Translations under genes and position numbers: made by a program
The notes under the pieces: generated by a model
Databases searched by the model: none
Told to the model about the DNA's origin: nothing
Seen by the model: only the letters and a program-made list of their open reading frames with translations
Source: Bacteriovoracaceae bacterium
GTDB taxonomy: Bacteria > Bdellovibrionota > Bacteriovoracia > Bacteriovoracales > Bacteriovoracaceae
NCBI GenBank assembly: GCA_048270185.1
Contig: JBLWTJ010000001.1
Location: forward strand, 800,001-864,000
Length of the DNA stretch: 64,000 bases
Reading direction: 5' to 3'
In this document: positions 47,899 to 53,441 of the stretch, one piece after another
Position numbering within the stretch: the first letter of the stretch is position 1
Layout of the letters: each line of letters begins with the position of its first letter

Positions 47899-48151
47899 TT
47901 CTATTTTCTTTATCCCTAAACATTACAAAATCTCTTTTAATCCTCATTGCTACGGCCTTAGTGCAATCCTATAAATTTAAAACTTTTCCTTGGAATATTA
48001 TTAAAGATACTTAACTAAATGTATATTTATGATTCGTTACATATTTGTTCAATTCATAAAATCTAAAACTAAAAATCGTAAGACGTTAGAATTTAAAACC
48101 ATAACTTTCAGAAGTGAAAACATCAAAGAATCACAACAAAAAAACCCTTAA

Positions 48152-48201
48152 TTTCAGATAGTTAAATTACTTCTCCCTTTTTATTTGGCACCTCAAATGA
48201 A
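48152..48201 (+). promoter_or_regulatory. Sigma54-like promoter with upstream IHF-like site
   Basis: TGGCAC (48186-48191), N5, ATGA (imperfect -12); tttcagatagtta (48152-48164) resembles WATCAR-N4-TTR. Confidence 0.45.
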
Positions 48202-48296
48202 ATAAAATAAATTGACTCACTAGTGATATTCACTCATTAAAAATAATTTATCATTCAGTTCGCCATTCAAACTATGATAGCAGAAAGGAGTTCTCT

Positions 48297-48899
48297 ATGA
48301 TCAATTCTATTTCCAAAAATATCTTAACTTACCCATGGGACAATCTAGACTTTGTTCAAAACTTTTTGGCCCAAACTTATTATTACGTTAATCATTCAGA
48401 GAAATTATTATGTCTATCGATGGCAAGGCTAAGTGAAGATAAAGAGTTTAGAAGATTTAAGGAGCACCTTATAGAAGAGAGTGCACACGACCGTCTGGCA
48501 ATAAATGACTTAAAAAAATTTAATTCAAATATAAACAATCATACTGAGTACGCCACAACAAAAGCATTCTATCAAACACAGTACTACTTGATCGAACACA
48601 AGCATCCACTGTCGTTATTAGGTTATATTCTTTTCTTAGAAGAGCTTGCGGATCAAGCAGGTAGATCAATTCATGAAAAACTAGAAGAATACTATAGTAA
48701 AACATCAGCTTTCATCAAGCTACACTATGAAGAAGATGAGGATCACGTTGAAGAGGCCAAGAAATTAATCAACACTCTACCTGAAGAGATAAAATCAATT
48801 ATTTATCAAAACTATGATGATTCAAAAAAGTTATATTATTCAATGCTTGATCAAATCGTCGAAGAAATTACTTCAAAGAATCAAAACAAAGCAGCATAG
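48297..48899 (+). CDS. Heme-oxygenase-like diiron oxidase (iron-containing redox enzyme; CADD/PqqC-like fold)
   Basis: EHLIEESAH, YILFLEE and LHYEEDEDH match the HDO E/H..E..HxxxDxxH ligand spacing; AAGGAG RBS. Confidence 0.8.
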   Translation: MINSISKNILTYPWDNLDFVQNFLAQTYYYVNHSEKLLCLSMARLSEDKEFRRFKEHLIEESAHDRLAINDLKKFNSNINNHTEYATTKAFYQTQYYLIEHKHPLSLLGYILFLEELADQAGRSIHEKLEEYYSKTSAFIKLHYEEDEDHVEEAKKLINTLPEEIKSIIYQNYDDSKKLYYSMLDQIVEEITSKNQNKAA

Positions 48900-48914
48900 A
48901 TAAGAAGGTTCAAG

Positions 48915-49655
48915 ATGCATGATATTAACCCAAATGATTTAAAGCTCTATTTAATCAAGCCGGGTGAAATAACACCGACTGGCTACACTTCTCTTCTATT
49001 AGATTTTTACTATAAATGGATGGATGTTTGGAGAAAATCATATATCAAACTAGGGGCACGAGAAGATGCGATCGAAAAACTCTACTCTGATCGACTCTTG
49101 ATACAGGATGAATTAGTTATTCTTACCTATCAAGGAGAAATTGTCTCAGGGGCGAGCTTTAAAATATTTAATCTTGCAAATCAGCTTCACCTTCATCAAG
49201 AATATTTTTCAGATATTGATGAATTAACAATGAAAAAACTATTAAAAATATCCGTTGATAATAAATTTATCTCATGTGGAGACTTAACACTTATTTCGAA
49301 ATTTACAACGAGTAAATCCGATTTCAATTGGAAGTACCTTATTTTGGCGGCTTTATTTGAAAGAAGTATTAGGCAAGATAATGGGCCACTTGTTGCCTAT
49401 ACAAATAATATAATGAAAATAACAAAGGGCTGTGTGGACTTAGGGGCAGAAGTGATAAAGAAAGAATTCAAGCATCACTTACCTTTTGGAGCAAGCTGTG
49501 TTGTCGATGTCATTTACGTCAACGATCGGACTCTAGAGAATGTATCGGAAGAAATGAAAGTTTATGGTCTTCTCGCCAGAGACTTACTTGATCGATGCTA
49601 TAGCAACTCTGATATTCCAGTATTCTCTCGAGAAAGAAAGAAGTCTACTGGATAA
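48915..49655 (+). CDS. Hypothetical protein, putative GNAT / LuxI-FeeM-like acyltransferase
   Basis: N-terminal helix (VWRKSY), DELVILTYQGEIVSG strand pair, GDLTLISKF, C-terminal LGAEVI; fold inferred by eye. Confidence 0.5.
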   Translation: MHDINPNDLKLYLIKPGEITPTGYTSLLLDFYYKWMDVWRKSYIKLGAREDAIEKLYSDRLLIQDELVILTYQGEIVSGASFKIFNLANQLHLHQEYFSDIDELTMKKLLKISVDNKFISCGDLTLISKFTTSKSDFNWKYLILAALFERSIRQDNGPLVAYTNNIMKITKGCVDLGAEVIKKEFKHHLPFGASCVVDVIYVNDRTLENVSEEMKVYGLLARDLLDRCYSNSDIPVFSRERKKSTG

Positions 49656-51012
49656 CAGAATCGTCGTCTTCATTAGATAAATATTCTTGGTCATCCTCTT
49701 CCTCTTCTACGCTTTCAAGAAAAATTGGAATCTTAACTTCTACTTTTGTTCCATGAGTATTATCAAAATCAATTGTACCACCAACACGGTCGACAATATA
49801 ACAAAGAATACCGAGCCCCATACCACTACCGGTCTCATTCTCTGTACCTACCCTTGAAGTAACTTTAGAGAATGCCTTAACAGAATTAATGATTTCATCT
49901 GAAATCCCTTCTCCATTATCCTCAACACAAAAACAAAGAGTCGTATTATCTGTATGAATATTTAATTTTACGATATCTCGATATGACGAGAACTTTAAGG
50001 CATTAGTTAAAAGGTTACCAACAATTGTCTTAACAATTATTTCACTGCTAACTTCTGTATAGCAGTCTTCATTTTCACCATTAAAATTCTTAATAAGTTT
50101 CACACGCTTTTGATTGAATCTATCTTTATAGTTCTCATCAATTGTTGTCATAACTTCAAAAATATTAATAGGATAAAGATTCTTTTCATTATCATTATAT
50201 TGATTACTAATCTCGGTCTTAAAGCGAATCAGCTCATCAAGTCGATCATTTGCTTTTTTTACATATGAGATATCATCTTTTTTAATTGCACGACTTAAAG
50301 ATAGTGAAACGAAATTTAAATCATTAGAAGTATCATGGATTAGCGCTTTATATAGAGAATTCGTTAGTTTTAACTCAGACTGTAATTTGTGATCAAGTGA
50401 TACTTTCTTATCGAGAAGCTTTAAAAGGAATCCCAACATAATTGAAACATATGTGAAGACAGCTCCTGTCCACCCCCATAATTCTGCACCTTCATCAAAT
50501 CTAAAGAATGGGTATGTTAATGTATTAACGATACCTGAAAACAGAATTAAAGAATAAAAGTAATTGGCAGCTTTGTTTAATCTCTTTAGATGAAAGTAAA
50601 GAGCAATAGCTCCAGGCATATATCCACTTATAGAGAATAAGAGAGTATAGGCCGTAAAATTATCTGTTTGAGAGAAAATAACCCCACTTATTGCGATACA
50701 AATAAGATGCAAAGAAATGAATTTATTTCGATATTTTGTAAGTTTACCGTCCATAAAGTAATTACCAAGGAAGTAAACAGGAATAAGTTGGAGCGTAAAT
50801 ACAGCAGCTGCCATCACTTTTGTTTGCCCAAAGAATAACGTTATAACGTAAACGATAAAGACGCTCGTAATAAACCTTTTAAACTGAGTGTAATCTTCAG
50901 TCTTATCAACCGCAGCAACGATGTAGACACAAATGTTACACATTACAAGAAAGGCCAGTAGCGAAATATATAGAATCAGCATATTATTCATAAAGTTATA
51001 TCTATCAAACAA
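49645..51012 (-). CDS. Orphan multi-TM (about 7) sensor histidine kinase
   Basis: About 200-aa hydrophobic N-terminus; LIHDTSN, NLLTNALKFS, EDNGEG, GSGMGL; start may be ATG 50991. Confidence 0.9.
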   Translation of the reverse strand: MFDRYNFMNNMLILYISLLAFLVMCNICVYIVAAVDKTEDYTQFKRFITSVFIVYVITLFFGQTKVMAAAVFTLQLIPVYFLGNYFMDGKLTKYRNKFISLHLICIAISGVIFSQTDNFTAYTLLFSISGYMPGAIALYFHLKRLNKAANYFYSLILFSGIVNTLTYPFFRFDEGAELWGWTGAVFTYVSIMLGFLLKLLDKKVSLDHKLQSELKLTNSLYKALIHDTSNDLNFVSLSLSRAIKKDDISYVKKANDRLDELIRFKTEISNQYNDNEKNLYPINIFEVMTTIDENYKDRFNQKRVKLIKNFNGENEDCYTEVSSEIIVKTIVGNLLTNALKFSSYRDIVKLNIHTDNTTLCFCVEDNGEGISDEIINSVKAFSKVTSRVGTENETGSGMGLGILCYIVDRVGGTIDFDNTHGTKVEVKIPIFLESVEEEEDDQEYLSNEDDDSVIQ

Positions 51013-51120
51013 ACTTTAGGTTAGAAAACATTAATAAATATTATGTATTTTCTACCAGTCCTAAGTGGTTAAAATCATTAGTAAGTTAAAAAATAATCAG
51101 CAAAAAAATTAATTAATTAA

Positions 51121-51147
51121 TAACTCAATCTCAACTTAATTGAGTTA
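51121..51147 (-). terminator. AT-rich hairpin at the end of the zincin gene
   Basis: taactcaat-N9-attgagtta. Confidence 0.4.
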
Positions 51148-52005
51148 CAAATTGGAATAACACTCTCTTAGTAAATTTCCATACTCTCTTTCAAGAGTAT
51201 CAAGTAAATCAGCAGATGAGCGAGGCGCTTGGTAGTACTTAACAAAGTGCTCATAAACATCACGTCTTAAATGATCGGGAAAGTTCAGCTCATTTAGATC
51301 AAGCCCCTTGCCTTTAATGAAGATCGAGCTAGGAGTGAAGCGTTTAGAATAATCTACAATATTTAAAGTATCTTTAAAGCGAATATCTCCATCAGGGAAT
51401 AAGCGGGCCTTAATTCTTGCAAGTCCCTTTTCTCCAAAGCATGAGTTCTTAATTGAATTTATACCGTGAGCAAGTAGCAAATCTTGAATATTTGATTTAA
51501 CACCGATGATTAGATCAGAGGCCGTGTAGCCAAAGAATTCATGTGTAGCAATGAGAGAATTCGTTCCCCTAGCGTTGGCCCTAAACCAATCTTGCGTGCG
51601 AGAGAGAGCCTCTTCAGTCGTGCTACGGCTCCCTTTTACAAGGACATCAAAGTCTGCGTGCATGAGTTCATGAAAAATCGTTGAAGCGAGAATATCAAAT
51701 TCATACTTACGAGACTGAGGAAAATCACTAGCACCTACAATACGATTACCACGCCAATTCTTTTCACGTAATACAATGGTATTGGTTTTATCGTTATAAG
51801 TCGCTTCAGCTCCAGACTTATTCATCATCCATCTTTCAAATGCATTCGGTTTGCGAATACGAACCTTTGAAATGACAGAATCGAGTCGAGATGAATTTAG
51901 ACCAAAGTGCTTATCTAAAGAATCTGAAAATTCAGAGATTGTCACCGGAGAGGCCGCAAGGACATAAGTTGCAAATAAGAGTGATAAAATAGCTTTCATA
52001 TCCAT
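51145..52005 (-). CDS. Secreted putative zinc metallopeptidase (HExxH)
   Basis: Signal peptide; TIFHELMHAD and downstream THEFFGY. Confidence 0.6.
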   Translation of the reverse strand: MDMKAILSLLFATYVLAASPVTISEFSDSLDKHFGLNSSRLDSVISKVRIRKPNAFERWMMNKSGAEATYNDKTNTIVLREKNWRGNRIVGASDFPQSRKYEFDILASTIFHELMHADFDVLVKGSRSTTEEALSRTQDWFRANARGTNSLIATHEFFGYTASDLIIGVKSNIQDLLLAHGINSIKNSCFGEKGLARIKARLFPDGDIRFKDTLNIVDYSKRFTPSSIFIKGKGLDLNELNFPDHLRRDVYEHFVKYYQAPRSSADLLDTLEREYGNLLRECYSNL

Positions 52006-52106
52006 ATTAAACCTCGTCCTACACGCAATTACTATATGTGTAAGATGATATGAGATTCGCTATTTCTTGAAATGTGAATTGAGATTAAGAGAGAATGAAT
52101 TTAGGT

Positions 52107-53441
52107 TTACTTATCAATACCGTTTAAAATAAAGGTAAAATTAGTACCCTTATCAAGTTCTGAAGTCACTTTAAACTCTCCACCAATTTCTTCGATGAAG
52201 TGGATTGCAATGGCAAGACCATTTCCTGATCCTTGTTCATTCATTGTGCCATTACTAGAATCTAACTCGTGTAAATTATAAAGCTTTCTAAGGGTCTTTT
52301 GGTTCATGCCAACGCCTTCATCAATCACTTCAATGACACAAAGATTTTCTTTCTTTAGATGGCTTAATTTTACAGTAACGCTACTATCTGAAGAAGAGAA
52401 CTTAATTGCATTTTGAATAAGATTTGTCAGAATATTTTCTTTTAAAATTGTTGGGTTTGTTTCGACAAAGACATCTGCTTCCGCATCAATTCTTAATTCA
52501 ACATTCTTATTGAGGGCGTAATCAGAGAGATCATTAAGACTTTCTTGGACTAGTTTTCGTATATCAATTTTCATTTTAAATAAACGTGTCGATTGTGAGT
52601 TTTTAATAATCCCATTGACCGCAGCAATATAGGAATCAATTTTATCAACTGCACCATCAATATCGCCACGAGAAATTTTCATTTTGGCAAACTCTAGCAT
52701 TTGAAGCTTATTATAGATATCGTGATTAAGGGTGCGATTTAAGACTTGAAGCTTGCGATTCAGCTCTAATTGCTTCACGGACATAGTTTCAAGCTTCATT
52801 GTTTTAAGTTCAAGAGAGTTAGCATACTCGAGATTTTCAAAAACCACGCGCTCAAGCTGGCGAGGGCCAACAAAGAAGCGTCGATGAATTTGCAAAATAC
52901 TCCAACGATTAAGAATACCGTTTAATTGAAATTCAACACGATCCTCATGCTCTTTAAAACTTACAGAGATGGGTTTTTTATACTTAAAGAACATCATGGG
53001 AAAGTGGCGAAAAATACCAACATACATATTCACAAACTCTTCAAATGGACGAGTATCACTGTGAAAAAGAAAAGAAATATTTAAGCTAGAGCGAGACCCT
53101 CGACTAAAATTGAGTGTTATATTTCGATAAAGGGCCTTAAATGCGTATTTTAGAAGGAAGCGAATAATAAAAACTTCCCCTGTAAAATAGCTAGCAACAT
53201 GAAGAAGTGAGCTAAAGATTGAATTCTCTACCCCGGTATTCGTAACTAACTTCACGTAGTCGGGGTAAGTCTGGGCAAAAGACTTAGTAATTAAACTAAA
53301 CTCTTCCCACGACAGCATATCCCTTTGATCTAATAATGAATTATAATCAAAGCCTAGATCCTCGAAGAATTCTCTCGGATCATCATTTTTAACCTTAATG
53401 GCATCAATATAAGCAACTAGCGCTTTATTACTTACGTCCAT
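52107..53441 (-). CDS. Orphan histidine kinase with a largely soluble N-terminal ligand-binding-like domain
   Basis: LNHDIYN, NLIQNAIKFS, DEGVG, GSGNGL. Confidence 0.88.
   Translation of the reverse strand: MDVSNKALVAYIDAIKVKNDDPREFFEDLGFDYNSLLDQRDMLSWEEFSLITKSFAQTYPDYVKLVTNTGVENSIFSSLLHVASYFTGEVFIIRFLLKYAFKALYRNITLNFSRGSRSSLNISFLFHSDTRPFEEFVNMYVGIFRHFPMMFFKYKKPISVSFKEHEDRVEFQLNGILNRWSILQIHRRFFVGPRQLERVVFENLEYANSLELKTMKLETMSVKQLELNRKLQVLNRTLNHDIYNKLQMLEFAKMKISRGDIDGAVDKIDSYIAAVNGIIKNSQSTRLFKMKIDIRKLVQESLNDLSDYALNKNVELRIDAEADVFVETNPTILKENILTNLIQNAIKFSSSDSSVTVKLSHLKKENLCVIEVIDEGVGMNQKTLRKLYNLHELDSSNGTMNEQGSGNGLAIAIHFIEEIGGEFKVTSELDKGTNFTFILNGIDK

Follow-up and report, generated by a model that had tools for sequence, protein, structure and literature searches.

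A 64,000-nucleotide stretch of a Bacteriovoracaceae genome (contig JBLWTJ010000001.1, positions 800,001 to 864,000; hereafter the window) carries three adjoining genes that we read, with moderate confidence, as a cassette made up of a synthase and its own receptor for a self-made, oxidized N-acyl lipophilic signal, the product, its binding and the phenotype being predictions. Open reading frame 1 (ORF1; 48297-48899, plus strand, 200 residues) encodes a heme-oxygenase-like diiron oxidase (HDO). ORF2 (48915-49655, plus strand, 246 residues), which follows after a gap of 15 bp, encodes a member of family B, a putative FeeM/LuxI-like N-acyltransferase family with the GNAT fold, as judged by a structural model, fold searches and profile comparison. 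The third gene (49645-51012, minus strand, 455 residues from a TTG start) encodes a histidine kinase with a seven-helix membrane sensor domain (family T), and its 3' end overlaps that of ORF2 by 11 bp in convergent orientation. The guanine-plus-cytosine content of the block is 32.2% compared with 36.9% for the contig, in which 1.4% of 3.1-kb segments are equally low. An earlier reading of the nucleotide sequence, made without database searches (the sequence-only reading), had described this AT-rich two-gene block with its gap and overlapping kinase, and the coordinates agree with it. The synthase-plus-receptor reading gains support from three lines of evidence, namely the interchange of sensors, the interchange of oxidases, and gene expression in the model strain Bdellovibrio bacteriovorus HD100.

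We took 76 loci around homologs of ORF1. Family B was present at 64 of them, T at 31 and a further family, C, at 30 (B, T and C are all unnamed), and no locus had both T and C; the 15 loci with neither were in many cases short or from outside the Bdellovibrionota. T occurred in five gene orders, and the triad of HDO, GNAT protein and multi-helix kinase, for which the sequence-only reading had suggested a neighborhood survey, is thus conserved in other genomes. In a phylum sample of 301 Bdellovibrionota genomes, profile matches were found to HDO in 143, B in 117, T in 41 and C in 108 genomes. Adjacency was scored with 112 strong and 38 weaker HDO matches (35 further ones lay outside the set), 138 of 145 B matches (seven with E above 1e-8 were dropped), all 51 T matches and 150 C matches (51 further ones lay outside, which makes the C counts lower bounds). 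B lay within 3 kb of 110 of the 112 strong HDO matches, and an HDO, among the HDO matches listed, was near 112 of the 138 B matches. With C counted among the matches listed, T lay near 22 B matches and C near at least 75, no B match had both sensors close by, and 41 had neither; inspection of 17 of these 41 revealed C at 13, a soluble kinase of another type ("V-type") at 2, and no sensor at 2. In 2 of the 22 T-near cases the V-type kinase was closer than T. Three sensor types therefore stand beside B and HDO: the seven-helix T kinase, the stand-alone PAS-like protein C, which is PAS/MEKHLA-like by Atlas features (0.95) and faintly so by Pfam, and the soluble V-type kinase. An XRE regulator was present at 29 of 62 C-type B loci versus none of 30 T-type loci, and the gene after HDO in one T clade encodes an OmpR-type regulator. 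A quick tree of 119 B proteins (with Shimodaira-Hasegawa-like approximate likelihood ratio support only) placed the T-linked copies in at least three places and the V-linked copies in one clade among C types. Because three unrelated sensors, one membrane-bound and two soluble, alternate beside one enzyme pair, a shared small ligand is the simplest explanation.

The oxidase varies as well. We inspected 20 of the 26 HDO-less B loci; 15 keep C, and at five a B paralog stands alone, C being absent. The 15 C-keeping loci carry a PF00487 desaturase-family gene (12 loci, His boxes intact in all 12), an acyl-CoA dehydrogenase (1) or a flavin adenine dinucleotide-dependent oxidoreductase (2). At two Zetaproteobacteria loci a canonical FeeM gene is followed by an HDO of ORF1's family (103-110 bits), and in a 151-genome subsample a match to PF21926, the FeeM-type family, lay within 3 kb of 9 of 22 weaker HDO matches; an N-acyl synthase with an HDO is therefore a recurring pair. 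V-type kinases flanking the FeeM-HDO loci were not confirmed by profile search. FeeM-type clusters resemble the B loci in their association with oxidative tailoring enzymes, as in the stieleriacine cluster, for which a FeeM-type synthase with a desaturase is proposed (PMC7293339), whereas the B loci have a dedicated linked sensor, of which we found no description for FeeM clusters in the literature searched. B-HDO fusions occur (L076, P0157), as do fusions of HDO with a methyltransferase. At L046, L048 and L058 an S-adenosylmethionine (SAM) methyltransferase takes the place of B next to HDO and T; at L009 and L071 it accompanies the B-HDO pair, and at L060 it is fused to HDO. In Bdellovibrio, one clade consists of B paralogs that stand alone (L126-L128, L131 and L134), with no oxidase or sensor nearby.

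B. bacteriovorus HD100 has the pair in its PAS form rather than the kinase form of the window. A 225-residue B member (CAE80273.1, profile E 1e-73) bears the automatic name "N-acetyltransferase domain". We infer that it is Bd2465, since Bd2465 measures 678 bp, shares an operon with Bd2464, an "iron-containing redox enzyme", and the accession falls in the CAE series, which we take to be that of HD100. Bd2465 and Bd2464 share a single operon, for which an attack-phase start has been mapped and which has a FliA site; their reads per kilobase per million (RPKM) are 6883 and 5645 in attack phase versus 145 and 14 in growth phase, the columns being taken in the sense of the legend and expression flags (PMC3627812). 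Both proteins were detected (20 and 16 peptides) in the same cluster, with a minimum at 4 h and a rise at exit (PMC12546842). Bd2467 has Bd2465 on one side and thioredoxin on the other, the place of C in named Bdellovibrio loci, and would by synteny be a family C member. It is expressed in opposite phase to the pair (RPKM 16 in attack versus 1626 in growth; PMC3627812) and rises about twofold in host-independent growth, in which thioredoxin does not (PMC2797640); it was not found in the available proteome table of PMC12546842. The HD100 data suggest that free-swimming attack-phase cells make the molecule. Bd2463 was ruled out as a B member by its 186 residues and the operon table, and its prey-entry induction is not evidence here. 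Neither a main-text occurrence of Bd2463-Bd2466 nor a paper on an HDO-B-sensor cassette was found in the literature searched, outside of which lie subscription papers and bioRxiv supplements.

ORF1 matches PF14518 with 52 bits against a cut-off of 28.9. All 113 homologs have E61, H64, E115, H143 and D147, and 112 of them have H150; by sequence alignment these residues make up a set of three histidines and three carboxylates on three core helices. The complete diiron ligand set attributed to ORF1 by the sequence-only reading is thus borne out. According to the available text of PMC13108848 this set defines most HDOs, and ORF1 shares it with UndA, BesC, CADD, SznF and MboA (PMC13108848, PMC13185094). 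Among solved sequences, 3DDE (E 1e-13) is closest to ORF1, followed by MboA (E 0.0014), and the match to UndA is weak (E 0.7); MboA, a side-chain desaturase (PMC13185094), is the nearest characterized sequence. Unlike these enzymes, ORF1 is paired with a GNAT protein, and neither a redox partner gene nor an ATP-grasp ligase gene lies beside it. An invariant Q26 and strongly conserved H33 and H57 mark the subfamily. By sequence, ORF1 is an HDO of a separate, uncharacterized Bdellovibrionota subfamily with an intact diiron site, for which Fe2/O2-dependent turnover is predicted. We favor desaturation as its probable reaction, because desaturase-type enzymes replace HDO and because MboA is its nearest characterized relative.

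ORF2 had no Pfam match and no meaningful NCBIfam match, and a direct sequence search returned one homolog only. The proteins encoded next to ORF1 homologs group with ORF2 as family B; an alignment of 74 of them finds 1053 clusters at 50% identity and no Pfam family, and family B and C alignments gave only noise against solved-structure sequences. The AF2 model of ORF2 has a mean predicted local distance difference test score (pLDDT) of 91.7. Foldseek returned 116 matches at E<=0.001 with acyltransferases in the top rows, the first being EsaI, RpaI, LasI and FeeM (E 2e-6 to 3e-5). VIA-align gave Z 11-14 overall, with RpaI at Z 14.0 (197 residues aligned, root-mean-square deviation (rmsd) 3.6) and FeeM (2G0B) at Z 13.5 (177 aligned, rmsd 3.5), tied with other GNATs, and the N-acyl homoserine lactone (AHL) synthases of the LuxI family (EsaI, LasI, RpaI, BjaI, TofI, MesI) were the best fold matches. 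ESM Atlas listed unnamed Bdellovibrionota clusters first and then GNAT/FeeM at 0.93. The GNAT assignment, which the sequence-only reading had called its weakest link, therefore holds, and the Foldseek search gave the AHL-synthase, FeeM and GNAT hits it had anticipated. Many of the GNAT matches, at similar Z (11-14), are resistance or detoxification acetyltransferases, which fits the alternative that the pair acylates and oxidizes an incoming prey signal or toxin, with the sensor detecting that substrate; prey quinolones (PMC8461301) and diffusible signal factor (DSF; cited in bioRxiv 2020.11.01.364414) are described as affecting Bdellovibrio predation. We consider such interception quite improbable, however, given that the longest structural alignments are those with AHL synthases and FeeM (177-197 residues), that the B profile is closer to FeeM-type proteins, and that HDO pairs with canonical FeeM elsewhere.

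In profile comparison by hhalign, family B matched an alignment of 16 PF21926 matches (not characterized enzymes) at 87% (E 3.8e-6) over 158 colinear columns. The LuxI profile gave 2.9%, which is at the level of the controls (three unrelated families, about 1% or less). The PF21926 cut-off was not reached by B (1 of 74 members at E 0.048; ORF2, no match), and PF00765 (LuxI) matched none of the 74 at E<=0.1 and nothing in the window's own genome. In a PF00765 alignment of 14 sequences, which is as weak as that 2.9% implies, the first R of LuxI faces W35 of B, the first D is kept in 53 of 74 members, and neither the later R nor E-x-R is present. Of the N-terminal R, F, W, D, D, R and the E-S-R residues of LuxI, numbered as in LasI, none but the first D is kept, and the signature Arg/Trp/Asp/Arg/Glu/Arg is thus missing. 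ORF2 is therefore ruled out as a LuxI member by the PF00765 null result, the missing signature and the 2.9% match; its proposed likeness to LuxI survives in the fold, where AHL synthases and FeeM lead. The catalytic glutamate of FeeM is E95 (PMC4897644), and the column that we map to it holds S120 in the window and I, T or S in the family, with a Glu two residues later in 30 of 74 members. B has the GNAT fold of FeeM-type N-acyl amino acid synthases (PF21926; 2G0B) and a colinear profile match that may mark remote homology to them over the whole domain, but differs in falling below the Pfam cut-off, in not keeping the catalytic Glu position and in its first helix, Y-x2-W-x3-W. Lacking the LuxI signature and having no Glu in the column of the FeeM glutamate, B belongs to neither family; by its modeled fold it is N-acyl-synthase-like, and amide formation would follow from that fold.

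Family B has pocket-like conserved residues of its own (W35, W39, D59, R63, D65, R131 and R164). The members without three of the family's arginines (positions 63, 131 and 164) form a divergent subfamily comprising the window copy and a sister clade. The ratio of nonsynonymous to synonymous substitution rates is 0.06-0.07 for HDO, B and T kinase alike in a comparison of two sister-clade genomes, and the genes are therefore maintained in that clade; this rules out decay of the subfamily there, the window copy having no relative close enough for the comparison. These features bear on the proposal that B is no amide synthase at all but a GNAT-fold thioesterase, decarboxylase, protein acyltransferase or non-catalytic partner, the ligand being chiefly oxidase-made, for example a DSF-like free unsaturated fatty acid. 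The loss of both the LuxI signature and the FeeM glutamate, the loci that have HDO and a sensor without B, and the uniformly oxidative nature of the partner enzymes all suit this proposal; yet B is constant where the oxidases vary, retains its own pocket-like residues and is under purifying selection, and we hold the proposal to be very improbable.

The kinase core (49645..50397, minus strand) has the H-box H226 and the N, G1 and G2 boxes, with HATPase_c at 65 bits and no PF00072 receiver domain in the gene. No response regulator was found near it, the nearest receiver domains lying about 34 kb upstream and 56 kb downstream, in agreement with the sequence-only reading. Its estimate of about seven membrane segments was likewise accurate, since residues 1-205 are modeled as seven long helices (pLDDT 92.5). 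This T domain (50398..51012, minus strand) was defined from an alignment of 32 members with a conserved FxxFR...WGW...Y motif in helices 6-7; the T domains of the window and its sister clade depart from the family at N25, W48, P125 and P196. No Pfam or NCBIfam match was found for residues 1-205, and no family was common to two of the 32 members, though the libraries may lack a model of such a domain. The modeled T domain has an arrangement like G-protein-coupled receptors and rhodopsins (Z 10-14), which may just be a common helical arrangement; Foldseek gave no match at E<=0.001 and no solved bacterial sensor among the matches listed. Since close homologs have 447 residues, translation may really begin at an ATG near 50991. 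In Vibrio, LuxM/LuxN and CqsA/CqsS place a multi-helix membrane histidine kinase beside the synthase of a lipophilic signal, and receptors of this type are hybrid kinases with a C-terminal receiver. The comparison with LuxN and CqsS drawn by the sequence-only reading stands in that the window kinase is also a multi-helix membrane kinase beside a putative synthase. In sequence, the window kinase lacks a receiver, and no relation of its sensor domain to LuxN or CqsS was detected with the Pfam and NCBIfam profiles; the synthase chemistry is also different, and the sensor at B-HDO loci is interchangeable with soluble types. As in LuxI/LuxR systems, the synthase gene adjoins the sensor gene, often convergently, but LuxR is not beside the B-HDO pair, and B has an obligatory-looking oxidase partner.

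Some T proteins of 247-297 residues lack the kinase core (L014:6573-7316, L039:7634-8404, L148:6289-7182), and in L014 and L039 the next gene encodes an XRE-HTH protein whose C-terminal domain is unknown. Unlinked T kinases at L152:7706-8458 and L155:4739-5473 adjoin a different HDO-looking protein of 244-250 residues without a Pfam match, possibly another synthase type for T sensors. L145 and L146 keep PhhA and the T kinase and lack B and HDO, while their clade relatives have all four; these may be receptor-only lineages. PhhA beside some T loci is a weak sign of a tyrosine substrate, since only one clade has it and it persists in members that have lost B and HDO.

In the mechanism that we propose from the folds, B would join an acyl chain, from acyl carrier protein or acyl-coenzyme A, to an amino acid or amine, acting as FeeM and LuxI folds do but not on SAM in the LuxI fashion. 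HDO, with O2, would oxidize the product or a precursor, most likely inserting a C=C bond by desaturation or decarboxylative olefination. The product would then enter the inner membrane and bind the seven-helix domain, and the kinase core would relay the signal to a response regulator whose gene lies elsewhere. In other lineages the receptor would be the soluble kinase or the soluble PAS-like protein, which an XRE regulator often accompanies. We infer that the product moves between cells and is sensed by the window's kinase. The logic of the cassette is already known, both as an autoinducer synthase with a receptor and as a synthase of N-acyl amino acids with tailoring.

Several observations weigh against a synthase with its own receptor. 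By alignment, the position of the catalytic glutamate of FeeM appears not to be Glu in B, and ORF2 lacks the three arginines (63, 131 and 164) that 58-59 of 74 B members keep. Four T loci have HDO and no B, three of them with the methyltransferase instead. Desaturase and HDO are not strict alternatives, since 6 of 119 B loci have both, and the fatty-acyl substrate is not certain, because the desaturase-family neighbor has the arginine hydroxylase GntB as its best NCBIfam match. Because the profiles derive from linked copies and relatives are not independent of one another, the linkage counts show consistent association rather than independent events. Distances among B proteins follow those of the sensor domain (rho 0.54) no more closely than those of the kinase core (rho 0.56), so that only co-inheritance is demonstrated; sensor-specific co-evolution was dropped, as the distance test gave no such signal. 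Finally, of the 51 T matches, 28 lie more than 6.5 kb from any B or strong HDO match, among them 5 of the 19 strong ones, and 72 of the 150 C matches listed are not within 6.5 kb of either. The many unlinked T and C copies and the lack of ligand-specific co-evolution would suit a model in which the sensor acts upstream, as in DesK/Des-like systems where a sensor controls tailoring enzymes: the T kinase would sense an outside cue, such as a prey lipid or the state of the membrane, and control production of a structural or surface aminolipid or a weapon. A membrane-embedded sensor beside desaturase-type chemistry fits this model, as does the very high attack-phase expression, which suits a bulk product. 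However, soluble PAS-like proteins and kinases replace T, which a shared small ligand explains better than a membrane property, and the HD100 operon, having a FliA site, is under life-cycle control. We therefore regard upstream sensing as unlikely and retain the synthase with its own receptor.

A phylogenomic study reported no acyl-homoserine lactone synthases in Bdellovibrionota and, in its available text, left open which other system fills their role (bioRxiv 2020.11.01.364414); PF00765 matches in our 301 genomes reached at most 32 bits, which agrees with that absence. No self-made signal has been described so far for these predators, and the cassette is a concrete candidate for the missing signal synthase, family B occurring in 117 of the sampled genomes. 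HD100, a tractable model, is included, with cassette genes that are strongly expressed and uncharacterized, so that it can be tested directly whether predators use a molecule of their own making to communicate with one another or to time their life cycle. With the cassette also come a new GNAT family (about 1000 clusters), an unnamed family of seven-helix sensors and a new HDO reaction. We entertain only tentatively the wider view of a phylum-wide signaling chemistry, in which an attack-phase oxidized N-acyl molecule made by a FeeM-like synthase and a diiron desaturase is read by three unrelated, interchangeable receptor types. In that case, a swimming predator could send its signal to siblings that grow within prey (the receptor candidate Bd2467 is expressed in growth phase), the kinase form would be a new class of seven-helix lipid-signal receptor, and a co-divergent synthase and sensor would constitute a lineage-specific dialect.

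The window's own genome has one HDO of ORF1's family, one B, one T and no C. Named close relatives are Halobacteriovorax (58% for ORF1), which makes it very likely that the host is a predator from that group. The presumed promoter lies in the AT-rich, divergent intergenic region 5' of ORF1 (47899..48296), with a ribosome-binding-like site before the ATG. Sigma-70-like sites there numbered 16 compared with 19.1 in shuffles, which is no excess, and no FliA-like box with fewer than three mismatches was found upstream of ORF1; since the scans did no better than shuffles, promoter assignment by motif was dropped. One RNA library has two short contigs on ORF1 and the kinase, which we do not count as expression because DNA cannot be excluded.

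A second orphan kinase with a soluble N-terminal domain, of the V-type (52107..53441, minus strand), belongs to the same family as the kinases flanking B-HDO pairs in five related loci and is probably not the receptor of the ORF1-ORF2 pair. Its N-terminal domain had no Pfam match; we presume a V4R/HNOB-like look. In relatives this kinase adjoins a ThiF gene and an unnamed 281-residue gene, possibly a second synthase pair, both of which are absent from the window; a paralog lies at C1:1031240. The stretch from the DEAD-box helicase to the Na+-NQR operon (47899-53441 here; L154, L164, L173, L181-L183 and L003) is a genus hotspot of swapped enzyme-sensor cassettes, namely HDO-B-T, B-HDO with a V-type kinase, ThiF and the 281-residue gene with a V-type kinase, and a second T kinase. 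The V-type cassette is at another locus in two relatives, and L003 has two different cassettes side by side. An HDO of ORF1's family also occurs on the Bdellovibrio plasmid pBdHM1 (AP029175.1), flanked by co-directional and convergent hypothetical genes in an arrangement like that of the cassette. Elsewhere in the window's own genome, a 6.7-kb contig (C17) has a PF21926 match in a 416-residue frame, beside an ORF that presumably resembles the LuxR autoinducer-binding domain. Between the two kinases of the window lies a gene (51145-52005, minus strand) for a 286-residue, secreted-looking protein with an HExxH motif and no family above noise, which is conserved at the locus in the genus.

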